Origin: Microcoleaceae cyanobacterium
Lineage (GTDB): Bacteria > Cyanobacteriota > Cyanobacteriia > Cyanobacteriales > Microcoleaceae
DNA: 45,078 bases
Assembly: GCA_051652765.1 (NCBI GenBank)
Contig: JBOFUV010000116.1
Coordinates: 1-45,078 of the forward strand
Reading direction: 5' to 3'
Of the stretch, positions 32,770-45,078 are shown one piece after another. The notes under the pieces were generated by a model. It was not told the DNA's origin. It searched no databases and was given only the letters and a program-made list of their open reading frames with translations. How positions within the stretch are numbered: the first letter of the stretch is position 1; the number at the start of each line of letters is the position of its first letter. Both the position numbers and the translations under genes were made by a program.

Positions 32770-34287
32770 TTAGGGAGATAGTTTGTGAGCATTCAGATCT
32801 AACTTGGCTTGTAATTCCGCTTTGATTCGATTCAAAATGGAGGCTTCATCAAGGGACGCTAAAATCTGTTTGACCACTGCCTTTGGCCCTTCCTCTCCCC
32901 AAGATGCACCATTGGCTAAGTATGCCTTTGTCACCTGACCAATGCCGTAGGAAGAAACGCCTGCAACTCCTGCTTGAGTCACTGCGACTGAAAGATAAGG
33001 AATTAAGCTCGCGCCTCCTGTTGCCGGAATCGCTAGCCCCAACAATCCCTTGAGGGAGCTTAAACCTAAATTGGCTAGGAGTTCGCTGGCACCAATCCCG
33101 CCCACACTCAAGGCAATTCTTTGGAGCAAATCGACTGCCCCTTGCTGGGTCATGGAAATCCCATACAGTTTTGACAAGGCTAGAATCATGGTGACATCAA
33201 TCGCAACGCCACTCAACAAATCAATGAATGTCAGGGGATTAAGGGCGATCGCCACAGACTTGGTCATGACAGCGCTCCAAATCGCTCGATTGGCATTCTC
33301 CTCCCGAATTGCCATTTTCCGTTGCACCAATTGTTCATTTACGTCTCCGGCATAGAGCATGGTGTTGAGGGCAACCAGGGATTTACCTTCCCGATCAAGA
33401 ATTTCCAAGATTTTTAGCTTCAGGTCAGCAATTTGGGGTTCTCCCCGGATCAGCTCTGCTTTGAGAGTGCCATCAGGCCGACGGGCTGCCGTGGCAATCA
33501 ACGGAGAAGCCGCCGCCATGACAATCTCATCAGGGGACAGCAACTCCTTCACCCGTTCATCCCGAATTTTTTGGTAAATTGCCATCCGATCGGCTTCGGG
33601 ATACTGATCAATCTTGTTGAACACCAGTAACATCGGCTTGCCCGCTTCCCGCAGTTGGGACAGGGCTTCATATTCTACCTGGGTAATGTCTCCAGAAACC
33701 ACGAACAGGAGTAAATCTACCTGTTGCGCGACTTGCTTGGCCATGGCCTCCCGAGTTTTGCCATCCACTTCATCAATGCCGGGGGTATCAATCAATTCCA
33801 CCTGGGAGATGTGGTAAGAAATAGGAGCCTGGGGTGCAGGAGCAGGAACAGGGGGGGAGAGGGGAAAATCAGGAATCGGGGGGAATAGGTCGTCTAGGTC
33901 ATCTGGATGATTGGATTCGGAGGTGTCCCCAGTTCTAATTTCCGGTTCTGTGGTTTCTAGCTGCCAATCCTGGGACTGATGAACCCGAGTCACCCCGTGA
34001 ATCGGGCCTGTTTCAAATACGTTCCGACCCAGGAGAGCGTTCAGCACCGAGGATTTACCCCGTCCCACCATCCCAAATACGGCGATTTGAATCCGAGTTT
34101 CTTCCAACTTGGTGAGCATAGACTCTAACCCAGTAATTTCTGTATCGAGTCCGGCCCGCTCCTCTGGGGTGAGGTCTAGGTTTGTGACCAAATCCCGCAT
34201 TGCATCTCGGGCGCGACGCAGGTTCAGCTCTTCTTGGATTTCAGTGAAATCCAGCAGTGTTCGGTTCAGGTCTTCGTCTAGGCTCAT
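32770..34287 (-). CDS. Era-like GTP-binding protein with DUF697 C-terminus
   Basis: GMVGRGKSS, DTPG, NKID; hydrophobic C-terminal domain. Confidence 0.88.
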   Translation of the reverse strand: MSLDEDLNRTLLDFTEIQEELNLRRARDAMRDLVTNLDLTPEERAGLDTEITGLESMLTKLEETRIQIAVFGMVGRGKSSVLNALLGRNVFETGPIHGVTRVHQSQDWQLETTEPEIRTGDTSESNHPDDLDDLFPPIPDFPLSPPVPAPAPQAPISYHISQVELIDTPGIDEVDGKTREAMAKQVAQQVDLLLFVVSGDITQVEYEALSQLREAGKPMLLVFNKIDQYPEADRMAIYQKIRDERVKELLSPDEIVMAAASPLIATAARRPDGTLKAELIRGEPQIADLKLKILEILDREGKSLVALNTMLYAGDVNEQLVQRKMAIREENANRAIWSAVMTKSVAIALNPLTFIDLLSGVAIDVTMILALSKLYGISMTQQGAVDLLQRIALSVGGIGASELLANLGLSSLKGLLGLAIPATGGASLIPYLSVAVTQAGVAGVSSYGIGQVTKAYLANGASWGEEGPKAVVKQILASLDEASILNRIKAELQAKLDLNAHKLSP

Positions 34288-34444
34288 CGGCGGTGACAGA
34301 GTTGAAGAGTGTTAGTGACTATCCTATTACGATCTATTGTGGTCTTAAGTGTGGTTTTAAGTGTGGTCTTGGGTGTGTGGGTTAACTGATGGGGGAAGCC
34401 GTCCTAGCTGTCTAAGTCAGGCAAGATGCCCAACCCACAACCTT

Positions 34445-34573
34445 TCAGGGGTTATTTTTTCTCATTGCTGAGTGCAGGCCATTCCGAGCCAACAAAATCG
34501 GTTTCACTTGGTCAAACCCAAACTTCTGGTAAAAAGCCTGCATTTCTGGTAAGCAACACAGCATGATCCCTTC
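34445..34573 (-). pseudogene. 3' end of a GNAT N-acetyltransferase gene, interrupted at 34573
   Basis: Hand translation EGIMLCCLPEMQAFYQKFGFDQVKPILLARNGLHSAMRKNNP*; FY.K.GF is the GNAT C-terminal motif; an in-frame TAG lies two codons upstream, inside the element. Confidence 0.75.
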
Positions 34574-34593
34574 ACTCTAGGATATTCCGAACC

Positions 34594-35874
34594 TCAAAAA
34601 AAGAGAAGCCTCGGAATTTCACTTTGGATTCTGCAAAACTCTTGCTTCAGATTTTTGTAGAGTTCGTAAGTCGTTCTGAACAATAACCTAATAATCGCGT
34701 CATCTCCCCCAATTGCATCATCACCTGCTTTCATTCGACCATTGCCGATGTCATGTAGACGACGGTGGGTTTTGTGCTTCTCCCAAATCGCTTGTCCCTG
34801 TTCAGATGGAATGTATTTACCTCTTTCCTTGTCAAACCTACCCTTAGCCCACATATAGAGACTGGAACGGCAAATCTTGGAGCCGTGAAATTTCTTCTTG
34901 AGCTGGCCGCTATCTCCTGACTTTTCCAAGGTGTAGCTCAAGCCCAAATAAGCCTGAAACTGCCTTTGAGAGTAGTCATGTTTACTACGCTTCCCTTTGC
35001 TGTTGGTGTGATGTTCGAGATAGACTCGACCGTCGATCAGGAACTTCTCAAAGGGATAGATCTTGCACAGCAAGTAGCTCTTGTTTTTGACCCCAAACTT
35101 GAACGGGCTCATGGCCTGTAAGTATGGCTCAAACTCAGGTTTCCTTAAGAACTCTTCCATCTTCTCCAGGACGTGCAGCTCTTGGCGCTTCAGGTCGCAA
35201 AGGCGCTTAGCATGAAAGCGAGTATAATCACTTAAGCCTGCACCTACAGTTGAACTGTAGGCTTTTCTGAATTGGGAGTAGGTGTGCTCTCCGGCAAGTG
35301 CAGACCAGAACGGGTGACACCCCAACTTGGGGTTAATGCCACAGTCCTTGGCCTCATGCTGAGCCCATTCTGGGAACTCATAGCAAAGCCTTTGCCGAAT
35401 TTGATTAATCAGGCTATTACCAACCTTGTCAATCTGTTCAACCTCATAGAACCAATCCTGGAGCAGCCGGATATCTTGGTTGAACTTGATGAACCTTTTC
35501 TGACCATGCTTGTCAATGAATCTTTCATCGAAATAACAGGCCCCTAAACATAGTGCATCTTCGGGATCTCGTTTATTTTTGAAGCCGTAGCTCATGCGCT
35601 GCGCCTTCAGATCGGCATGACCAATCCACAAGACCTCAATTCCCTGATCCTCGCATCTCTCAGCAATCAACCTGCTATACCACCCTCCAGTTGGCTCCAT
35701 TACGACCTTGTCTGGATTCATCCCCCAAAGCAGATCAAACCCATCCTTATTGCAATCAACCCGAACAAATTCTTTTCGATTCTGGGAGTAGTAGCGCTGG
35801 AGGTTGTTCGGAAAACAATCCAATGCAGCGGCTACGGCGTGGTTACGCCCCACGTCAAGTCCAACAACTATCAT
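34594..35874 (-). CDS. IS110-family (DEDD/RuvC-like) recombinase, divergent
   Basis: GLDVG, MEPTG, KRDPEDA (DEDD set); coiled coil; C-terminal F.AYLGL....EKSG...GS...R..LY with the catalytic Ser. Confidence 0.88.
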   Translation of the reverse strand: MIVVGLDVGRNHAVAAALDCFPNNLQRYYSQNRKEFVRVDCNKDGFDLLWGMNPDKVVMEPTGGWYSRLIAERCEDQGIEVLWIGHADLKAQRMSYGFKNKRDPEDALCLGACYFDERFIDKHGQKRFIKFNQDIRLLQDWFYEVEQIDKVGNSLINQIRQRLCYEFPEWAQHEAKDCGINPKLGCHPFWSALAGEHTYSQFRKAYSSTVGAGLSDYTRFHAKRLCDLKRQELHVLEKMEEFLRKPEFEPYLQAMSPFKFGVKNKSYLLCKIYPFEKFLIDGRVYLEHHTNSKGKRSKHDYSQRQFQAYLGLSYTLEKSGDSGQLKKKFHGSKICRSSLYMWAKGRFDKERGKYIPSEQGQAIWEKHKTHRRLHDIGNGRMKAGDDAIGGDDAIIRLLFRTTYELYKNLKQEFCRIQSEIPRLLFF

Positions 35875-35921
35875 TATTTAAAAATTAAACTGGTTTGGAT
35901 CGTCGCTGTTCTCCCTTAAAA

Positions 35922-36164
35922 GGACATATAACTTCCGAATCCATTGAAAGCCCACAACCAATACGGGGAGCTTAATTCACTCTGTAAGTGTGTCCAGGAG
36001 TGGAAGGCGGCGAAGAGGAGCTTTTGAAGGAATTCAAGCCCGCGCCCATTGCTGGGGGTGCTTACTTCTACTTAGAAGCCCTCAATCTCCGACCTTCCAA
36101 CTACTCCGAAGAGCAGGCGAACAAGGGAGCGACCCTTTGTCCGCAATCCCAGGAACGTGGGATT
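35922..36164 (-). ncRNA. Predicted bridge RNA (5' hairpins, target-binding loop, donor-binding loop)
   Basis: Hairpins at 36145-36164 and 36117-36144; stem-loops 36107-35997 and 35995-35922, each reading guide(..GAA)-NN-AAGC(A/U)CCCC...GGGCUU-linker-guide(..UUC); guides match 34566-34578. Confidence 0.8.
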
Positions 36165-36249
36165 TCTGAGCCACATCAGCTCCACCAACTAGCCGATCCT
36201 GCTAGTGGCGATCGCCTCGCTAGAGACGATTCATCAGGCGGTATTTAGG

Positions 36250-36597
36250 CTACATCTGATCTAATTTATTCTGTGTCAGGTAGGTTTGATATTCTTGCCT
36301 AGACAGCAATGGGAAGATCCCATAAGCTGCTGCTCTAATAGTCCACTGGCTGATCTCTTCTGTAGAACCTAGGGTTCTGACATCTAGCTTCAGTCTTTGC
36401 AACTCTGATCGCCTTGAGTAACAAGGAGCTGCCACGTAGTAAAGCAAGTAGGCTTTCACCAATAGGAACCGCGCATCAGAGCAGTAGCCCCACTTAACGT
36501 CCCTGACGGACAATAAAAGTTCAGGGCATTCTTTTTTCAGATAATCAAACTGGACGGGCCGCCCGCAAGTAAGGTAGGGAGGTCTGAAATCGTTCAT
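36250..36597 (-). CDS. Hypothetical protein
   Basis: ATG-initiated ORF in a tight leftward operon. Confidence 0.6.
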   Translation of the reverse strand: MNDFRPPYLTCGRPVQFDYLKKECPELLLSVRDVKWGYCSDARFLLVKAYLLYYVAAPCYSRRSELQRLKLDVRTLGSTEEISQWTIRAAAYGIFPLLSRQEYQTYLTQNKLDQM

Positions 36598-36601
36598 TTG
36601 T

Positions 36602-37006
36602 TTACACCCGATCTAAAGATTTGGACGCGACCACTTCAAGGTTGTTGAAAACCCTTCTTAGGTTTGAGTCTGTTTCCTCTACTTTCTCTTCCGAGATAGG
36701 CGCACATAGGATGGCGATCGCCTCAACCAGAGAGTTATTGATATCAATCAGGCTTTCCCAGATTGACGTGTATGCCCAGCTTGGATCGGTCGGGCTGTGA
36801 AACGGCTTACTGCAACCGTCAAGTCTGAGACTCCAGCGGTCTAAGACCTCCATAAATTCTTCAGCCTCATCGCCAGATAGAAAGAACGTTGACCCACCTC
36901 TGAGGGAGATCTTTACCCGGACTAACGCTTGATCCTGGAAGACCTCACACCCGGCGATCTCCTCCAAGTCAATCCATATTTGTTCAAACTTAATTAAGTG
37001 TTTCAT
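36602..37006 (-). CDS. Hypothetical protein
   Basis: ORF with AGGAGG-type RBS, overlapping the upstream gene. Confidence 0.65.
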   Translation of the reverse strand: MKHLIKFEQIWIDLEEIAGCEVFQDQALVRVKISLRGGSTFFLSGDEAEEFMEVLDRWSLRLDGCSKPFHSPTDPSWAYTSIWESLIDINNSLVEAIAILCAPISEEKVEETDSNLRRVFNNLEVVASKSLDRV

Positions 37007-37289
37007 TTTTTCTTCCTCCTAAATCGTTTAAGAAATTCCATTGCCACTGTTCCAGCGCTTCTCCAATGTCTCTAGGGGCGAACCCCAGACATTTGTCAAA
37101 AATTTTCATCCATTCGACAATCTCCTTCGGTGAAAGGGAGAATTCATAGATCCGACTAACAGAACTCCCACCCTGAGAGAGAGTGAGCGTTAGTCGAGGT
37201 TCTCTGGGTGTTCGGGTTAGTGGTTGTTCCTCGCACATAAGCCATTTTTTGACATTGCTTTCCTTGACAGACCCCCATTGATTTCTCAT
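36990..37289 (-). CDS. Hypothetical protein
   Basis: First ORF of the leftward operon; start uncertain. Confidence 0.5.
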   Translation of the reverse strand: MRNQWGSVKESNVKKWLMCEEQPLTRTPREPRLTLTLSQGGSSVSRIYEFSLSPKEIVEWMKIFDKCLGFAPRDIGEALEQWQWNFLNDLGGRKNETLN

Positions 37290-37353
37290 ATGAGAATCTA
37301 AAATCCATAATTACTTATATGAGATAATATTGTCAAGGATTCTCATATGTAAA
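37283..37353. promoter_or_regulatory. Divergent control region with three palindromic operator-like sites
   Basis: TTCTCATATGAGAA (37283, perfect), TACTTATATGAGAT (37312), TTCTCATATGTAAA (37340); TTGACA on the minus strand at 37336-37331. Confidence 0.7.
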
Positions 37354-37388
37354 ATTAGAGGTAATGCAGATAGAGATGGGAGCAAATC

Positions 37389-37586
37389 ATGAATCAAGAC
37401 AAGAAGCAACCGGGAAGACCGCCAACAGGGAGAATGAACGCCTCATTCAGGGTCAACCCGTCCCTGTGGGAGAGATTCTCTCGACTGGCGGAGCAGAAAT
37501 CGGTAAACAAATCCGACATTCTAGAAGAATTCCTGATCAACTATTTGGAGGGAAAATTTCATCTGTCGATCAGGCAATCGTCATAG
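37389..37586 (+). CDS. Ribbon-helix-helix (CopG/Arc-like) regulator
   Basis: GRP, beta strand ASFRV, helices LWERFSRLAEQ and NKSDILEEFL; GGGAG RBS. Confidence 0.75.
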   Translation: MNQDKKQPGRPPTGRMNASFRVNPSLWERFSRLAEQKSVNKSDILEEFLINYLEGKFHLSIRQSS

Positions 37587-37589
37587 AAA

Positions 37590-37729
37590 TGATTGATCAA
37601 TGTCGAGAACAGCTTGAAGAATCCGCCGCATGTATCGAGTGGTACCAAAACCAGGAAGCAAAGATTCTAAAGCGATTGAACAACCTGGAACAAATTCTTA
37701 AACGAGCATCGGCAGACGAAGAAGAATAA
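37590..37729 (+). CDS. Small coiled-coil protein (3' part of ORF 37364-37729)
   Basis: MIDQCREQLEES...LKRLNNLEQIL heptads; followed by a terminator; start uncertain. Confidence 0.45.
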
Positions 37730-37734
37730 CTCCC

Positions 37735-37770
37735 ACACTCGCACCCATTGAATGGGTGCGAGTGTTTTTT
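37735..37770 (+). terminator. Intrinsic terminator
   Basis: ACACTCGCACCCATT-G-AATGGGTGCGAGTGT then T-tract. Confidence 0.85.
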
Positions 37771-37825
37771 CTATGCCAAACTCGCACTATTCCAAACAAC
37801 CCTTGAATAAACACCCATTAGCCGT

Positions 37826-38353
37826 ATGAATCAACTCAAAATCAACTTAAACGGTCACGCCCTACTGCCACCCACCCAGTTCGAACAACACGACAAGCGC
37901 TTAACCCTCGTCTATATAGAAGAGAATCCGGGGGCATCCCACAGAGAAATACTGGCTCACCTCAACAACGTTAGGGCAGTTCCCCTGAGACTGGAGCAGT
38001 TGAAATACTTCACCAGTCAGCTCGAACAGAAAGGAGTGTTGGGGCTACAAATAATTCGTTCCCCAAAAAAATCTCAGTCCGATATTTTTTTTTGGGAACG
38101 AATTAAATTAGAGATTCGGTGGTTGAAAGCTGGTGGAAAAGCCAGGGGGGATCACAAGTACCCCTGGCTGTGCGAGGGGAAGAAACCAATCAAATATATT
38201 GGTGGTGGTAATCAAGAAAGTGCGATCGCTCAAGCCAGAGTCGAACTGATTGAGGATTGGATTCTACAAGGGCTTGGCAAAGACGAAATCATAGCCCTAG
38301 TGCCCAGGCTTCAGAGTAGTTTGAAAAAAGTCAAGAAGAAGCCTAAGGATTGA
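37826..38353 (+). CDS. Hypothetical basic protein, possible winged-helix DNA-binding N-terminus
   Basis: YIEENPGASHREIL pattern; Lys-rich C-terminus. Confidence 0.55.
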   Translation: MNQLKINLNGHALLPPTQFEQHDKRLTLVYIEENPGASHREILAHLNNVRAVPLRLEQLKYFTSQLEQKGVLGLQIIRSPKKSQSDIFFWERIKLEIRWLKAGGKARGDHKYPWLCEGKKPIKYIGGGNQESAIAQARVELIEDWILQGLGKDEIIALVPRLQSSLKKVKKKPKD

Positions 38354-38583
38354 GATAGTTCGCATGGTAAGATACACACATTAAACCAGACTGAATTCTC
38401 TACCAAAAAGGGCATCTTCACTCAATATTGAAAATTGCGCTTTTAGATAAAAGAGCAAATGCAAAAGCCCCGGCAAAACCCCCTATTTTCCGGGGCTTAC
38501 GGCCAAAACCCTTTAGGAAATCTGCCGATTCAATTTGCTAATATGTAGTCAGTTCCGGGAAACAGCAAATAGATTTTAATGAT

Positions 38584-39174
38584 ATGGCTAAAAATCGCGG
38601 GCACGGAAAAGCCACTATTTTAAGCAATAAGGATTACGAGAAAATTTACGACCAATTGGTCACAGATCAACAGCGGTGCATCTTCTCCCTGTTGCGATAC
38701 ACGGGTGAGCGAATCTCTGCCGTGCTTCAACTTGAAGTCAGCGACGCTTACCAGAACCCCTGGGAGTGCGAACCCAGAGATCAGATCACCTACAGGGCCA
38801 TCACCCGAAAAAAGTCAGACGGCAAGGCTATCACCCGGCAGGTTCCAGTCAACCGAGCAATGCGGGCTGAGCTGAAGAACTTCCAACCCCCGTTGACTGG
38901 GTTCTTGTTTCCCAGTCCGTTACGACCAGATGCTTCCATTTCTCGACAGAGTGTAGATCATTGGTTCCGGCGTGCTTGTTCATCAGCCGGACTGGGACGA
39001 CAGGGGATATCATTGCACAGCCCCCGGCGAACCTTGATTACCAAGCTTGCCCGTGAGGGAGTGCCCGTGGCGATCCTGAAGCAGGTCACCGGACATCAAT
39101 CGACAGAGACCCTAATCAAACACTATGTGGATGTAGACGAAAAAGCAGTTGTTCGGGCAATGGAGCTGATCTAA
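38584..39174 (+). CDS. Tyrosine recombinase (catalytic domain only)
   Basis: YTGERISA (R), K, HSPRRT (HxxR), TGH, HY (Y nucleophile). Confidence 0.93.
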   Translation: MAKNRGHGKATILSNKDYEKIYDQLVTDQQRCIFSLLRYTGERISAVLQLEVSDAYQNPWECEPRDQITYRAITRKKSDGKAITRQVPVNRAMRAELKNFQPPLTGFLFPSPLRPDASISRQSVDHWFRRACSSAGLGRQGISLHSPRRTLITKLAREGVPVAILKQVTGHQSTETLIKHYVDVDEKAVVRAMELI

Positions 39175-39477
39175 CATTCCCCTCAGGCTTGGTTTGCGTT
39201 TAAGCACCTGGCGTTGAAAAATTACCCCGGCAAAGTTCACCCGGCGCTCGGTCTAAAATCCTTTTAGTTCAAAAGTTCCCCCTTGGTAGGGATCAGGGTT
39301 GAGTAGATGTAGATGAGAAAGCAGTCGTTCGGGCAATGGAGTTAATCTAAGATCCCCCTGGTCTTGCGACTACCCCAAAGTATTGCTATCAAAGGATCGT
39401 CTCCGAGAGAAATCACCCGGCGCTCGATCTAGAATCCTTTCAGCTCAAAAGTTCCCCCTTGGTAGGGGTCAGGGTTG
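39127..39477. repeat. 176-bp-period tandem duplication covering the 3' ends of two convergent genes
   Basis: 39127-39174 ~ 39303-39350 and 39237-39301 ~ 39413-39477; the intervening 62-bp segments differ. Confidence 0.9.
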
Positions 39478-40379
39478 GGCGTGTATTTGGAAACAACCAC
39501 AGTGTCATACTTCCCTGTACCTGGATTTGTCGCTACAAACCTTCCCACGTAGCTAGTCATGGTAGGGCTAAGGGTGAGCAAGTTGTTTTGTACGTTACTT
39601 GCCCAGAGGTTCTGACTTAATGCCCCGGCGATCGCCGAATCAATTGAACCGTATTCTGGATTGATTACATCACTAGCCACAGCCCCAATCAGCCCCATGA
39701 TCCGCTCCAGATCCAGCCACTGGAACCCAACAACGCTAGAAGTAACAGTAACGACAGGATCAGCTGTAACCGCAAAATTGATAGCTTGCCCCATCTGAAA
39801 TTGATCAACAATCACCACCTTGTAGCCCGTGATATTCTGTTCGGAGTCGAGGAACTTGACCGCATTCTGCTCAAACTCATTGCTAGGGTTATCAAAGAAT
39901 CGTTCAAATGGAGAACTGTAATTTTCCCCGGTGCCAATGGCTAGCTTAATCTTTATGGATACAGGCATTTCATCTTCCTCAGCTCCAATAATTCCTGCGA
40001 TTGTGAAGTTTGACCGGACAATCAATTCAATCGTAGCGTCAGCTTGCCCCTGGATGCTCACCTGTTGCTTGTTGGTCTGTTCTCGGAATGTTTGACCAGG
40101 GGCTAGTCGGAATGGGATCTTAGAGCTACCCACAAACACCAAAAGCTCATCATTTGAGGTATTTGTGATGATGACTTCTCGAACATAGGTTTTGTCAGTG
40201 ATTTTGGCTTCAGTTAGGATAGTTTGATTAGAGCCGTCAAGGGCAATTCTTGCCCCGTCTGTATGACTGAGATCTGGATTGCCAACAATCCCATTAAAAT
40301 TTAAATTATTCAGCTTGTCTAGGATTTTATCTAGATGTTCAGAATAGTCAAACGCAAATGAATTACCAGAGAACGGCAT
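39429..40379 (-). CDS. Hypothetical beta-rich protein, possible virion component
   Basis: VIITNTSNDELLVFVG...RLAPGQTF beta-sandwich-like pattern. Confidence 0.55.
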   Translation of the reverse strand: MPFSGNSFAFDYSEHLDKILDKLNNLNFNGIVGNPDLSHTDGARIALDGSNQTILTEAKITDKTYVREVIITNTSNDELLVFVGSSKIPFRLAPGQTFREQTNKQQVSIQGQADATIELIVRSNFTIAGIIGAEEDEMPVSIKIKLAIGTGENYSSPFERFFDNPSNEFEQNAVKFLDSEQNITGYKVVIVDQFQMGQAINFAVTADPVVTVTSSVVGFQWLDLERIMGLIGAVASDVINPEYGSIDSAIAGALSQNLWASNVQNNLLTLSPTMTSYVGRFVATNPGTGKYDTVVVSKYTPNPDPYQGGTFELKGF

Positions 40380-40406
40380 AATTCAATAAAACAAAATTTT
40401 GTTTTT

Positions 40407-41195
40407 ATGGTAACTTACTCAGGATCAGCCTTTGTACAGATGAGCTTTGCTGGAACGCCTATTTTAAGAACAGCTACACTACTCAGCTTCAATCAATTAA
40501 CAAATGAGTATTTGGAAGATGAGATCTTAACTCGGTCTTTCAGATTGGAAATTTTTAATCTGATTTTGATTAGCCATATTAGATCATTGCCTGTATCGGC
40601 TCCACCCAAAATCAGAGACTTTGACTCATCCTATGATCGTTGGATGGCTCTGGAAGAGCATTTTCAGGACAAAGTTCACATGAAAGCCCGAGTGGCGATA
40701 GGAAACTATCCCCTGATGGAAGCTAGGATTTTCAACTATAAATCACCATGGAAAAATAATTTAACGGAAGATTTCAACCAAACTGGAAAGCGACTACAGA
40801 TTGGTAAGAATCAGTCTGTTGAATTAATGCTACATCAGGACTACTACCAAGGGGTAGAGGGTGATATTCTTGATTTGCATTGCAACTATGTTCTGTATCG
40901 TGATACTGAGTCAGAGGGGCTTTCTAGGAGTGTAAGCTCAAAGAGTATGGAGGTTTCAGAGTTTAAAACCACTGTCCTAAACAACACCTCTGTTTATTCA
41001 ATTGACCTAAAAAACGATGGGGAAGAAATCATTTTTATTGATTTCTCTTCTGATCCATCTAGTGACGGTATTTCCCTTAAGTCCGGTGAATCCTTCTGTT
41101 TCAATGAAGAGGGAATACTTCTCCGCGAAATAAACCTTAAAACATATTGCTTACCCAAAAAAACATCTAGACTTGGAATCATTTATAAATATTAA
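40407..41195 (+). CDS. Hypothetical protein, possible virion component
   Basis: C-terminal IDLKNDGEEIIFIDF...GISLKSGESF pattern like that of the neighbouring protein. Confidence 0.55.
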   Translation: MVTYSGSAFVQMSFAGTPILRTATLLSFNQLTNEYLEDEILTRSFRLEIFNLILISHIRSLPVSAPPKIRDFDSSYDRWMALEEHFQDKVHMKARVAIGNYPLMEARIFNYKSPWKNNLTEDFNQTGKRLQIGKNQSVELMLHQDYYQGVEGDILDLHCNYVLYRDTESEGLSRSVSSKSMEVSEFKTTVLNNTSVYSIDLKNDGEEIIFIDFSSDPSSDGISLKSGESFCFNEEGILLREINLKTYCLPKKTSRLGIIYKY

Positions 41196-41203
41196 ATCTA
41201 AAA

Positions 41204-43171
41204 ATGGCAGAAACAGCCCTCGGCTATCAAGACGGCCCGTCTATTTCTGAAGTCAAAGAAACTCTAAGAGAAGTTGCCTCACAAGATCCTCACTTAGATA
41301 CCTTTGAGGAAAGATCAAGTCCTTACGATGAGGGAGACAAAGGGATAGAAGAAGTCCGTAGACAGAGAGAGCTGCAAGATCTAGAGATTGCAGTTGAAGA
41401 ATTGGATATTGACGCTCAACAAACTTACTTTGATGAATACGATGGCTCTGCCGGGGGGCTGAGGAAAGATAGAGATATCAACAGGGGAATAGACAAGGGC
41501 AATCCTACTGAGTTCATGAGAGATGAAATAGAAGAAGGTCATTCTAGTGCTACTTTTGAGAGTTTCGAGGGATCTGAAGGAATGGATCTTTGGCCCGAAA
41601 TCGAAGAAGCCATCAAGGATGGGGCTACCGCTGCCGAAGAGGAGAATAATTCCTCAGCACATAGAGAGACTCAGTTTGGAGAGGGTAGTACTACGGTTAA
41701 TGGAAGGAAAGTAGATCGAAAAGGACTTAAAGACTGGCTTGAATCAGTGGGGCCTAGCAAGTGGGGAATTGGAAAAAGCTATAGCCAGCTTGCTCACGAA
41801 ACAAGGGTTAGAAGCAGTAAAGGTGGTGTAAGCATATCTACTGGAGGGTTTAGTAAACGAATAAAAGTAGGGGGGATCGTTAGGTATGACGATCTATACT
41901 TTCAACGCCCTTGGAGTTCGAGTAATCCATATGGGAGTCCGGCAAGTAATGACTATGCTCGCGCTTACTGTGAAGGGCTATCATCTGCAAGCTTTGGCGG
42001 TAGCAATGCGTCCGGATCTAAGAGGGCAGAAACTCGCAGGGAATCGGATAGCGGCATCAGCGGCGGAAGATGGCTAAGTCCTAGGGAACTAATTGATGAT
42101 TTATTTTTTTTCCCTGAGGGTCATTATGGTTGCGGTTATGATATATGCCCTAAAAATACGACCCGAACATGGGTTGAACGAAACGGAGTTGTTGTTACTT
42201 CTACGCATCACAGAACCTACAAAGGTAGCCAGTCAGCAGTAATTGGTGGGTATGATCTAGATGGTGGCTTAATAGATGTTCCTCCAAGAATAATTATCGA
42301 TGACTCTATGGAAAAGTCTTGCTGTCAGATGATTGCGCGAATTTACGATGTCATTAATCCGGATCAATATCCCGGAGAGATGCCATCTACCATGCTTAAT
42401 GACGATCCCGATCCTAAAACAATTAATTCCCTCACTGACTTGCTGCTTCACAAATTTCGCTTATGGGACGAGGCAACGGGTCAGTATCCAGTGAAAATCA
42501 AAATTCCTGACGCGGATCGAACCCAGGAAGGGGAACAGAGCCTTGATCTAAAATTTCCTAATCAAGCCGAACTTTTGGCAGAAATTTACGGGTTAGTGAT
42601 GAACCAGAGCGTAGACAATGACCTCTATGAAGATTATCTAGCCCGAATCATTACTGAGATAGGCTTAACTCGAATATCGGCACGACAGGCTTATGATGCC
42701 TTGAAAGAGATCTTAGACTGGCTAGGGGTTGACTGGGAAAAACGAGAAGGCAAGATGCAAATGACCTTTACGCCGGGGGAGGAGATGGCCGAAAAAGTAC
42801 TGCAAAATTCAACCCAACCCTATCAGCAACCTCATATTAAAGAGGGAGAACAAAGTCTAAAGGAAATTCTCCAACAGCTTCTAAATGCTGCTGCAATTAT
42901 CCGCTCCGTTCACTTCAGACCAGTAGACAGGAAGGGGGATGTTAAAGGGCAAATTATCAACAACCTCAAGCGAGGTATTGACTTGTATGACAAGCTCTCT
43001 AACATTGAAAGCAAGTCTGACGATGGTCAATCATGGGAAAAATTTAAGGAGATGGTTCAAGCCAATTTTTCGACACCTGGAGATACTCAGAAAAGTGATA
43101 ATCCCCTAATCAAAGATTTCAAACCAGGAAGCGTCCCAGGCTCCAGTCCCAAACCCAAGTCCCAACCCTAA
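41204..43171 (+). CDS. Large hypothetical protein (acidic N-terminus, Gly/Ser-rich middle, helical C-terminus)
   Basis: 655-aa uninterrupted ORF. Confidence 0.7.
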   Translation: MAETALGYQDGPSISEVKETLREVASQDPHLDTFEERSSPYDEGDKGIEEVRRQRELQDLEIAVEELDIDAQQTYFDEYDGSAGGLRKDRDINRGIDKGNPTEFMRDEIEEGHSSATFESFEGSEGMDLWPEIEEAIKDGATAAEEENNSSAHRETQFGEGSTTVNGRKVDRKGLKDWLESVGPSKWGIGKSYSQLAHETRVRSSKGGVSISTGGFSKRIKVGGIVRYDDLYFQRPWSSSNPYGSPASNDYARAYCEGLSSASFGGSNASGSKRAETRRESDSGISGGRWLSPRELIDDLFFFPEGHYGCGYDICPKNTTRTWVERNGVVVTSTHHRTYKGSQSAVIGGYDLDGGLIDVPPRIIIDDSMEKSCCQMIARIYDVINPDQYPGEMPSTMLNDDPDPKTINSLTDLLLHKFRLWDEATGQYPVKIKIPDADRTQEGEQSLDLKFPNQAELLAEIYGLVMNQSVDNDLYEDYLARIITEIGLTRISARQAYDALKEILDWLGVDWEKREGKMQMTFTPGEEMAEKVLQNSTQPYQQPHIKEGEQSLKEILQQLLNAAAIIRSVHFRPVDRKGDVKGQIINNLKRGIDLYDKLSNIESKSDDGQSWEKFKEMVQANFSTPGDTQKSDNPLIKDFKPGSVPGSSPKPKSQP

Positions 43172-43270
43172 ACATGAATTTGACAGATTAATACAACGAG
43201 ACAAAGCGATCTCAATTTGACCCTAGCTTTTAATCCTAAAAAGTCTCTAGAGAGTAATTTCAAAATGGTT

Positions 43271-43370
43271 AGGGTTTAAATTCTAATAACCAGAGTTTAA
43301 ATTTTAATAGTCAGAGTTTAAATTTTAATAGTTAGGGCTTAAATTCTAGTGGCTAGGATTTAAATTCTAA
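43271..43370. repeat. 5 x 21-bp AT-rich direct repeats (AGRGTTTAAATTYTAATARYY)
   Basis: Units start at 43271, 43292, 43313, 43334, 43355. Confidence 0.85.
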
Positions 43371-43452
43371 AATTGTCTTAAAAGGTCTCGCAAATTATCT
43401 AAAACTTCCCTAATCCCAAACCCAACCCCAAACCCAACCCCAAACCCAGATC

Positions 43453-44991
43453 ATGAGCTTTGCTATTCTTGCTAAAAATTTGCCCTCAAGAAAGGTCAGG
43501 GCGGCAATCACCGGATCACCTGGCGGGGTGAGGATCTTTGCCAAGTCCGATGAACTGGCGGCGGCGGCCTCTGGTATTGGGGGATTTATCAGGTCTGCAT
43601 TCAGGCGGCTGGTTGGGTTCATCTCTCAAGCCCTGAATTTGGCATTTCAAGCTATTCGGTTCTCGTTCACTAAGTTGTGGCAGTGGACAGTTAATACTGT
43701 TCAGTACTTGTGGACATTCAACTGGGACGTGTCCGATACAAGCATCGATGCTGAACTTCAGAGGATGTGGAATTCAACTGGAGGACTGCTAGGAGGGTTT
43801 GCCGGACAACTCGTTGGTTGGACTGCTTGCGGGTTCGCTCCAGGTGCTGTCATTGCTGTATTTAATGAACCCCTTGGACGTTACCTCATGGCGGAAGTTG
43901 GGCAAGAGGCAGTAGAGGAGCTGGCTGGATCACTTGCATCTATCATTCAAATCAGCGCTCAAAACCTTGCTAAGGCAACATTTCTGTGGACGTTTAAGTC
44001 AATCAGGAGTCTAATCAAGCGCGGGTTGAAGCCTCAAGGTATCGATCTAACGGGTTGGGGGAACGATGAAGAAAAGGACTGGAGTTTTGCGAGACAGCTA
44101 CAAAAGAAGGTTGGAAGTATCCAAAATGAATGGTGGCAAGAATTCGTTGAAGAGTTCTTCGAGGAAGCGTTTGACAGTTGCCAAGAGGCAGGATATGCCC
44201 TGGCTGGAGCTGCCGATAGTTGGTATGCTCAACAGGAAGAATTGAAGCGTTCAGGGTTGTTAGGACAAAGTCGAACAATTGAGTTTTACCCAAACAAGGA
44301 AGTCAAGTCCGAACGTCTGATCCTCACGGGCCCCGAACAATTAGTTAAAGCCGGGGTAATTTCCGCTCTCAATACCAGGGAGCTGCTGGATAACCGACAA
44401 GCTGAGATGGTGAGCAGTCAGGTGGATTTGGATGTCATCACTCCATTAGAATCGGTTGGCTTGGAATTAAAGCTAGAATTCTACAACTTTCCCGAAACGC
44501 CTTATTTTACTAAAGACCGAAGGAAGGATGTAGTCAGAAGTCAATTAGTTGTCCCTAATGCAAACCGAGCCAAACTGGGCTGGAACGAATTTAAGGGATT
44601 GTTCTCAGGGCAAGTTTTCAGCAAGGGAATTTATAGTGGTCTAGCAGTTCTAGACAACGGTAAAAGATTGAAGTTGTACGCTTCAAGCGAACAAGAAGTT
44701 GAGCAAATGTTAGTCAAAATGGCTCAATTGACAACCGCTGAAATTATTTATCCATTGCACATTACCAAGCGAACAAAGTTTGAAGATACCGCTAAAAAGC
44801 CAGACATCAAACCTCAATACTTAGGCTACGTTCACATCGTCAACTGGCCTAAAATCACCAACTACCAAAAGAAGAAAGGAATTAGACCAACTGGCAAGTA
44901 TGGCAAGGTTAGACTCCCGATGCAGGCAAAAGAAAAACCGAGCTGGTGGGATGAGGATTTAAGAAAAGCTCTGTCTACAGGTCTAGCCTAG
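43453..44991 (+). CDS. Hypothetical protein with Trp-rich amphipathic and Gly-zipper helices
   Basis: 512-aa ORF; GGLLGGFAGQLVGW segment; followed by a terminator. Confidence 0.7.
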   Translation: MSFAILAKNLPSRKVRAAITGSPGGVRIFAKSDELAAAASGIGGFIRSAFRRLVGFISQALNLAFQAIRFSFTKLWQWTVNTVQYLWTFNWDVSDTSIDAELQRMWNSTGGLLGGFAGQLVGWTACGFAPGAVIAVFNEPLGRYLMAEVGQEAVEELAGSLASIIQISAQNLAKATFLWTFKSIRSLIKRGLKPQGIDLTGWGNDEEKDWSFARQLQKKVGSIQNEWWQEFVEEFFEEAFDSCQEAGYALAGAADSWYAQQEELKRSGLLGQSRTIEFYPNKEVKSERLILTGPEQLVKAGVISALNTRELLDNRQAEMVSSQVDLDVITPLESVGLELKLEFYNFPETPYFTKDRRKDVVRSQLVVPNANRAKLGWNEFKGLFSGQVFSKGIYSGLAVLDNGKRLKLYASSEQEVEQMLVKMAQLTTAEIIYPLHITKRTKFEDTAKKPDIKPQYLGYVHIVNWPKITNYQKKKGIRPTGKYGKVRLPMQAKEKPSWWDEDLRKALSTGLA

Positions 44992-45027
44992 AAAAGTTGC
45001 TGCACCTCTAGAGGCGCAGCAACTTTT
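44992..45027. terminator. Bidirectional-type intrinsic terminator
   Basis: AAAAGTTGCTGCACCTC-TA-GAGGCGCAGCAACTTTT. Confidence 0.8.
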
Positions 45028-45078
45028 GATAGCTTGCCAGAAACAAAAATTTTATTAATGATGAAAAAGTCCAGTTAA

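Follow-up and report, generated by a model that had tools for sequence, protein, structure and literature searches.

An IS110-family recombinase and its bridge RNA as the probable integration module of a 13-kb cyanobacterial element

The right end of the element and its bridge RNA

The window analyzed here is a 45,078-bp stretch of DNA from a Microcoleaceae cyanobacterium (assembly GCA_051652765.1, contig JBOFUV010000116.1). It contains an IS110-family recombinase gene, a 369-nt non-coding region directly 5' of this gene, and further genes that continue to the end of the sequence. The window is an entire contig (C116), one of 158 in the assembly, and the element described below therefore runs off it. 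The sequence indicates that the stretch from 34571 to the window end is very probably the right-hand 10.5 kb of an integrative element of about 13 kb, the integration module of which would consist of the IS110-family recombinase and a bridge RNA. Guides in this RNA match both distant ends; it thus appears that the entire element, and not only a small insertion sequence (IS), is the inserted unit.

The stop codon of the recombinase gene is located 20 nt from the junction core TTC at 34571-34573, as had been stated in the original prediction, an earlier note made from the letters of the window. Read in gene orientation past the recombinase stop, the sequence is ...CCTAGAGT-GAA-GGGATCATG..., and from GAA on it codes for the 41 C-terminal residues of a GNAT acetyltransferase. 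A 43-aa C-terminal GNAT fragment (34445..34576, minus strand) adjoins the junction. No GNAT-like sequence was found upstream of the RNA within the window. Scans of open reading frames (ORFs) and families agree with the original prediction that this region has no second junction, and that an operon, a tyrosine recombinase and large hypothetical genes extend to the window end. With the 43-aa fragment as query, no longer protein was matched in the protein collection, and only weak matches were obtained in the order-level genomes. In relatives, the GTPase gene on the GNAT side is kept, and GNAT does not adjoin it there. Just 3' of the GNAT stop, a stretch of about 60-75 nt (34397-34473) has copies of 77-97% identity on eight or more other contigs (C47, C64, C125, C133, C4, C34, C74, and C37); it is probably a small dispersed repeat.

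The 426-aa recombinase matched the NCBIfam model NF051857 ("IS110 family transposase") with 361.9 bits (cut-off 180). Matches to Pfam PF01548 (21.4 bits, cut-off 29) and PF02371 both fell below the cut-off. Residues D7, E60, D103, and D106, which form the D-E-D-D tetrad, and S319 are invariant in 16 homologues. S319-G320 is likewise invariant and was aligned with the SG motif of the ISCro4 transposase (9t56) in a weak profile alignment (E 0.01). The profile of the 16 homologues had weak matches to ISCro4 (9t56, E 0.01) and IS621 (8wt6, E 0.07) over the DEDD and serine regions, while a phmmer search with the recombinase returned no match in the PDB. No close relative of the recombinase was confirmed in the genome and metagenome contig collections. 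A 21-kb IMG/VR contig classed as viral (L088) encodes a 36-38% identical recombinase near the contig end (match 1722-2927); its upstream RNA does not have the GAA/UUC geometry described below, and no common cargo was detected downstream.

The RNA lies 5' of the recombinase gene in the orientation of the gene. It has two stem-loops with internal loops, which together hold four guide segments of 8-10 nt each (Table 1). The geometry is fixed across 11 sequences: loop 1 follows the order P1 (6 bp), 7 nt, GAA, 2 nt, P2 ... P2', 7 or 8 nt, UUC, 2 nt, P1', and loop 2 the order P3 (4 bp), 7 nt, GAA, 2 nt, P4 ... P4', 8 nt, UUC, 2 nt, P3'. P1, P3, and P4 are paired in nearly all of the 11 rows, with compensatory changes such as GGGCUU/AAGCCC, GGAUUU/GAGUCC, and GUGCUU/AAGCAC. 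A scan of 33000-45078 against Rfam gave no match at E values up to 1.

The 5' arm of loop 2 is identical to the right end (RE) plus GAA, and the 3' arm of loop 1 is complementary to GAA plus the flank past the right end; in terms of an IS110-type bridge RNA, the first of these arms is thus the left donor guide and the second the right target guide. The right-end matches of the arms hold in the window (GAA-GGGAT, one G:U), in copies on contigs C92 (GAA-AATATT) and C84 (AAGAT-GAA-AGGAG) of the same genome, and in genome G007. The other two arms foretell a left junction AAGTA-GAA-TC... for the window element. A conserved leader separates the guide loops from the cargo. It is kept even in the C84 copy, the recombinase of which is only 36% identical. 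On the minus strand at 36223-36232, about 10 nt inside the point near 36242 where homology between the copies stops, the leader contains GAA-TCGTC, a sequence that resembles a left end (LE) and has 7 nt in common with the true left end, GAA-TCGTT. This site could have remained from a compact ancestor, or it could serve in the partial excision of a 1.67-kb module.

Table 1. Features of the element in the window (positions are those of the window).
Feature	Position	Strand	Remarks
GNAT acetyltransferase 3' fragment (right target half)	34448..34573	-	Starts at GAA core codon; stop 34445-34447; corresponds to residues 103-142 in alignment with intact homologues
Core trinucleotide GAA (TTC on plus) at right-end junction	34571..34573	-	Found at the two junctions of each delimited element; does not vary in any of the four guide segments
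Right end (RE) of element, ending ...CCTAGAGT (left donor half)	34574..34593	-	Left donor guide ACAGAGUGAA matches AGAGT+GAA; same end in copy C92
IS110-family DEDD/serine recombinase, 426 aa	34594..35874	-	NF051857; invariant catalytic residues
Donor-binding loop	35931..35989	-	Left donor guide 35976-35985; right donor guide 35937-35947; stems P3 and P4 covary
Target-binding loop	36016..36081	-	Left target guide CUAAGUAGAA 36066-36075; right target guide GAAUUCCUUC 36026-36035; stem P1 covaries
Conserved structured leader, about 160 nt, between cargo and guide loops	36082..36242	-	About five predicted hairpins; common to all three copies of the genome
Three co-oriented small ORFs (115, 134, 99 aa) 5' of RNA	36250..37289	-	No family matches
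Divergent intergenic region	37281..37363	.	18-nt inverted repeat (37281-37298 / 37338-37355); minus-strand promoter-like sites 37353-37307
ORFs of 121 aa and 175 aa	37364..38353	+	175-aa protein kept in all three elements of the genome
Short tyrosine recombinase, 196 aa, catalytic domain alone	38584..39174	+	Pfam PF00589, 62.6 bits
316-aa protein with no assigned function	39429..40379	-	Kept in all three elements of the genome
Cargo ORFs of 262, 655, and 512 aa	40407..45078	+	No family matches; continue, by C94 synteny, on C19:1-2570

The far junction and the paralogous elements

The sequence at C19:2566-2578 reads AACGA-TTC-TACTT. A naive genome-wide search for junctions of the AAGTAGAATCCATT type had given numerous chance near-matches and no GNAT; the site was located solely via cargo homology. 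It begins within the 24 nt (2544-2567) past the tblastn match to an endolysin-like protein (C19:1989-2543), and the endolysin-like ORF itself (C19:1974-2567) terminates inside the junction. On the minus strand of C19, positions 2879 to 2571 encode the 103-aa N-terminal half of a GNAT protein (Pfam PF00583, 31.9 bits, profile positions 11-86 of 116). In an alignment of both halves with intact homologues of 137-149 aa, the N-terminal half ends ...SQVE and the window fragment starts EGIM...; both fall on column E103 (numbered from the 142-aa homologues), and no residue is missing. Because the halves abut at E103, the GNAT gene is split at one GAA codon by everything from C19:2570 to window position 34574, a span of at least 13.1 kb plus the gap between the contigs. 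Synteny with contig C94 suggests that this gap is small. The repeat common to both junctions is GAA only.

The left target guide of the window RNA equals CCAAGTA-GAA at C19:2571-2580 (reverse complement). The donor guides match the RE (AGAGT-GAA) and the far LE (GAA-TC/GTT, where the slash marks one bulged RNA base; one pair is G:U). The right donor guide fits the left end solely with the sixth RNA base from the core bulged, and this is the case in the three elements of this genome (GAATC/GTT, GAATC/GTT, and GAATC/CCC). The same one-base bulge rule is valid in 13 of 13 delimited elements. The original prediction had expected the far junction to read ATGGA-TTC-TACTT and to be followed, beyond the window, by the 5' half of the GNAT gene. 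The GNAT half was found as foretold, and the 8 nt on the target side are exact; only 3 of 5 nt in the donor-side pentamer were right, since the right donor guide has one bulged RNA base. For the same junction, the expected circle sequence AGAGT-GAA-TCCAT keeps AGAGT-GAA-TC, and its end is revised from the far end to TCGTT. The predicted circle junction is thus ...CCTAGAGT-GAA-TCGTTAGG... (AGAGT-GAA-TCGTT), and the predicted unoccupied GNAT site is ...TCCCAAGTA-GAA-GGGATCATG....

The genome contains two further copies of the recombinase gene. The copy on C92 has 75% DNA and 79% protein identity to that of the window, and the two align over 34571..36242 only. The first 99 nt of C92 and C84 are in common with the starts of C87 and C94, respectively, which represents assembly overlap. 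Over their first 8-10 kb, C87 and C94 are collinear at the protein level with window 36244-44415, including the genes for the 175-aa protein, the tyrosine recombinase, and the 316-aa, 655-aa, and 512-aa proteins; each of the three recombinase copies is therefore joined to homologous cargo. Homologues of the distal C94 cargo genes are located at the start of C19; the last of these genes is the endolysin-like gene with a Peptidase_C39_2 domain.

In the C84 copy the left target guide, UUAGCA-GAA, has an exact match at C94:13799-13807. This site is located in the 80 nt that separate the last cargo gene (the endolysin-like one) from a host gene for the CCA-adding enzyme. The host flanks of C84+C94 are adjacent in 8 of the 12 relatives searched. 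The same-genus genome G001 has the empty site once, as ...GCTACATTAACA-GAA-AGGGC... (also as ...ACATTAACA-GAA-AGGG...). For the C92+C87 element, the best junction is AACGA-TTC-TCTATGG at C87:15534-15549, with one G:T. A second same-genus genome, G002, carries an insertion exactly at the C84+C94 target site (L073, C90 near 26747; L077, C163 near 43468). Its junctions read ...ACATTAGCA/GAATCCATAG... on one contig and ...CTCGTAAGAT/GAAAGGAGAA... on the other (slashes mark the junctions), and the right-end octamer is the same as in C84+C94. In the 0.85-1.5 kb on the inner side of each junction, neither an IS110 homologue nor a cargo homologue was detected; the insertion may represent another element, or a non-autonomous one, whose ends are the same.

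The extent of the homology between the window and C92, exactly 34571..36242, is what one would expect of a compact IS110 of 1.67 kb that has its other end just 5' of the RNA and sits beside an unrelated island, the cargo being a separate insertion or a rearrangement. The size is canonical, and the LE-like GAA-TCGTC lies close to this boundary. The homology block taken alone looks like a 1.67-kb IS, yet its boundary does not fit the guides, and the flank at 36243 is not GNAT. An IS end just upstream of the RNA had been named beforehand as an outcome that would refute the original prediction. The flank at 36243 does not match the left target guide either; neither the window copy nor the C92 copy shows at about 36242 the sequence foretold by its own RNA. 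The GNAT 5' half and the exact match to the left target guide are instead found past the cargo. Homologous cargo accompanies three of three copies, no solo IS110 copy was found in this genome, and in other genomes the guide-foretold junctions are 8.5-14.5 kb away in 10 of 11 loci. We therefore consider a compact IS next to unrelated DNA very unlikely, and the interpretation that the whole element is the inserted unit is supported at the level of sequence.

Related elements in other cyanobacteria and the weighing of alternatives

Homologues of the recombinase with E <= 1e-30 were present in 51 of 301 genomes of the order. Eighteen loci were taken by similarity and contig size; 14 of these have at least 15 kb of upstream sequence. 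Thirteen of the 18 loci had readable guides (the exceptions are L057, L065, L066, L068, and L071), and the RE side fits in all 13. This fit was computed in seven cases, L060 (g270) was covered by the same computed comparison, and five cases were determined by eye; among these, there is one G:T in L059 and a single mismatch in both L063 and L070. Eleven loci had both readable guides and at least 15 kb upstream. Ten of these contain the foretold sequence, LT5-GAA-[A/T]C and then CCC, at a distance of 8.5-14.5 kb upstream of the recombinase gene. The chance expectation for an exact 10-mer is about 0.017 per 18 kb. Four further, weaker far-junction matches that lack CCC were taken as chance. From end to end, the elements measure about 9.8 to 17.4 kb.

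Clustering of the ORFs from eight elements revealed that only two families, those of the IS110 recombinase and of the short tyrosine recombinase, are represented in every one of them. The cargo comes in two flavours, and further genes are common to subsets of three to four of the eight elements. A homologue of the short tyrosine recombinase was found upstream in 12 of the 14 loci, the exceptions being L061 and L071. The original prediction had suggested a survey of homologues for co-occurrence with the 655-aa and 512-aa genes; the far junctions and the tyrosine recombinase found in homologous loci favour reading the whole element as the unit. Locus L061 (G165:C1, near 2473378) is one of two copies in a closed genome; its RE fits the guides, and no tyrosine recombinase was found within 18 kb upstream. 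This element may have decayed or been rearranged, or it may be larger. In the three elements of the Microcoleaceae genome, the tyrosine recombinase gene is directed away from the IS110 gene. In most other genomes (loci L058-L070), the two genes are co-oriented, and the tyrosine recombinase gene is 3.4-5 kb upstream. No invertible segment was found near window 38584-39174, just a 20-nt hairpin at 38052-38105 and a 77% inverted repeat with 41145-41166.

Tyrosine recombinases are the usual integrases of islands and prophages. The steady presence of one in these elements could mean that it performs the integration and that the IS110 module is a passenger at the edge. The flanking repeat, however, is the 3-nt GAA core only, and there are no longer direct repeats of the att type; the bridge RNA specifies the two ends of the element as well as its two host flanks. 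The protein itself, of about 190-207 aa, consists of the catalytic domain alone, and its gene is internal and varies in position and orientation. Integration by the tyrosine recombinase is thus extremely improbable.

The elements could also be expanded IS110 loci in the sense of Hu et al. (2026), that is, a compact IS that grew by half-match capture, so that the whole unit is now immobile and only partial segments move. This preprint describes a continuum of sizes up to about 100 kb, along which whole-unit mobility falls (10.64898/2026.08.14.744561), and the internal LE-like site together with the leader at 36082-36242 could be the relic of a compact ancestor. Against growth by capture, 13 elements have full four-arm matches at both ends, and no half-matches were observed. 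Three diverged paralogues are located at three targets, and each fits its own guides. The syntenic cargo and the tyrosine recombinase that is co-conserved across genera point to repeated, long-term integration of the whole unit. The sizes of 10-17 kb are below the limit of about 20 kb past which, in the data that the preprint describes, no whole-unit movement was seen. Expansion by capture is unlikely, although it is a more credible alternative than a passenger module or a solo IS.

Several observations weigh against the conclusion that the recombinase and its RNA insert the entire element. The excision, the circle, and the unoccupied GNAT site in this strain are all deduced from sequence. The continuity of C116 and C19 is deduced from C94 synteny, and the ends of C116 do not overlap with other contigs. 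Read plainly, that is, without the bulge rule, the right donor guide fails to match. The homology of C92 and C84 to the window stops at about 36242, beside the LE-like GAA-TCGTC; the 1.67-kb module might also move alone, or it might represent an ancestral compact IS. Taken singly, the short guide matches also occur elsewhere in the genome, with 11 occurrences of an 11-mer around the C94 junction. The search for an empty site of C92+C87 was negative; the flanks of this element are on separate contigs in G001, G002, and G005. L061 has no foretold far junction within 18 kb, and a tyrosine recombinase is present in every element compared (8 of 8).

Under the interpretation that we prefer, in which the bridge recombinase inserts the whole unit, the left guide of the target loop has the same sense as AAGTA-GAA, and its right guide is complementary to GAA-GGGAT. 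In the donor loop, the left guide has the same sense as AGAGT-GAA (RE), and the right guide is complementary to GAA-TC/GTT (the far LE) with one bulge. By analogy with IS621, the excised circle would join RE-GAA-LE. The complex of recombinase and RNA would pair this circle junction with the GNAT site ...CCAAGTA-GAA-GGGATC..., and strand exchange at the GAA core would insert the whole circle and duplicate GAA alone. The RNA would presumably be transcribed from the operon promoter near 37330; the junction promoter of IS621 could not drive it, because the RNA is more than 10 kb from the left end. The four guide-DNA matches at both ends, the precise split of the GNAT gene, and the same code in 12 other delimited elements are the basis of this scheme in the sequence; circle formation, catalysis, and present-day activity are the parts that we infer.

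The promoter-like sites in the divergent intergenic region are consensus matches alone, and the region presumably acts as a regulatory switch. A perfect 15-bp hairpin followed by a T-run (37735-37765), located 3' of the 121-aa ORF, forms a strong terminator-like site within the element. The 134-aa ORF has a weak homologue within the C87 cargo.

The cargo provides few recognizable functions. The endolysin-like gene matched Peptidase_C39_2 and, in C94, phrog_10051 (E 2e-54), and collagen-like "minor tail" repeats were matched among the cargo ORFs (PHROGs). No capsid, terminase, or replication gene was recognized, and the remaining cargo ORFs belong to no family. Searches of Pfam, NCBIfam, and PHROGs returned no plasmid or resistance families among the cargo ORFs; plasmid databases were not searched. 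The 512-aa protein (43453-44991) is a member of a large uncharacterised family with 475 cluster representatives at E <= 0.001, most of which are 505-545 aa long. In its AF2 model, which is confident (pLDDT 83), the N-terminal part contains long helices and the C-terminal part is an alpha/beta domain. With this model, Foldseek gave no match in the PDB at E <= 0.001; BFVD gave one unnamed match (E 1.9e-4, TM 0.23), and VIA wide gave only generic helical-hairpin matches (Z <= 10.6, residues 92-195). A tblastn search of phage GenBank sequences with the 512-aa protein returned no match. For the 655-aa protein, the ESM Atlas contained no usable match, and the protein collection returned only the protein itself. 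Hypothetically, the element could be a prophage and its cargo that of a virus.

A broader reading, which we put forward as a tentative possibility, joins these observations. The elements would be widespread autonomous integrative elements of cyanobacteria, possibly unrecognised temperate viruses, that integrate into the chromosome under RNA guidance. The bridge recombinase would replace the phage integrase, and new attachment sites would arise through mutation of four short guides. The short tyrosine recombinase that is always present would be a second partner that, for example, resolves junctions or circle dimers or controls excision. To call the integration module domesticated, as the original prediction did, is an interpretation.

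Comparison with known systems

Bridge recombinases are under development for the insertion of large DNA at programmable sites. The elements described here add a natural lineage, spread across many cyanobacterial genera, in which a conserved unit of 10-17 kb appears to be inserted by a single recombinase together with one RNA. If this is true, RNA-guided recombination is stably used as the integration system of a multi-gene element, and paralogues have been retargeted to different host sites. The family supplies 13 natural sets of guides and targets for tests of specificity rules. It also raises the question of why the short tyrosine recombinase is constantly co-inherited.

The core of IS621 is CT, whereas here it is GAA, of 3 nt. 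The protein is only marginally similar to that of IS621 (profile E 0.07 to 8wt6), the elements are 10-17 kb long in comparison to about 1.3 kb, and the right donor guide pairs with one bulged base. The RNA is located 8-15 kb from the left end, where a junction promoter cannot drive it. A typical IS110 is compact (about 1.2-1.6 kb), has its RNA beside the left end, and rebuilds a promoter at the circle junction; the ends of the elements described here are 9.8-17.4 kb apart. The similarities concern the arrangement of the module. As in IS621 and the IS110 group with bridge RNA (Durrant et al. 2024, PMC11208160; structures 8wt6-8wt9), the recombinase has DEDD and serine domains, and a non-coding RNA with target and donor loops precedes the gene on its 5' side. 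The 5' guide of each loop corresponds to the left half plus core in sense orientation, and the 3' guide is complementary to the core plus right half. Scarless insertion with duplication of the core, as described for IS621, is predicted here from sequence.

The tyrosine and serine integrases of phages and integrative elements also insert circular multi-gene elements site-specifically into host genes, as proposed here, and as in those elements the integration module is at one end, beside a divergent regulatory region. The choice of site, in contrast, is encoded in RNA and is altered between paralogues by changes in the guides, and there are no att repeats longer than 3 nt. A full-text literature search returned nothing that unites IS110 and a bridge RNA with the integration of temperate phages. 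Tn7-like CRISPR-associated transposons (CASTs) also represent natural RNA-guided insertion of multi-kb cargo, as proposed here; however, CASTs use a Cas effector with TnsABC, have terminal inverted repeats, and insert away from the target, whereas a single recombinase and one bispecific RNA would act in the elements described here.

Cargo-bearing IS110 loci of up to about 100 kb are already known from a preprint of August 2026 (Hu, Xie, Yang, and Rubin, bioRxiv 10.64898/2026.08.14.744561), and the present family is a variant of them. According to the preprint, those loci are mostly plasmid-derived and enriched in resistance genes, and they grow by half-match capture while whole-unit mobility falls; a 9.2-kb circle was recovered (10.64898/2026.08.14.744561). 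The words "prophage" and "cyanobacteri" do not occur in this main text; the supplements may list similar loci. In both cases a recombinase and a bridge RNA bound multi-kb cargo (more than 2 kb), and the target guides match widely separated flanks. In contrast to IS110 loci that, in the preprint's account, swell by sloppy half-match capture, the family described here is matched fully in all four arms; its gene set is conserved and syntenic, a tyrosine recombinase is conserved along with it, its hosts are cyanobacteria, and its cargo contains no recognised plasmid or resistance genes.

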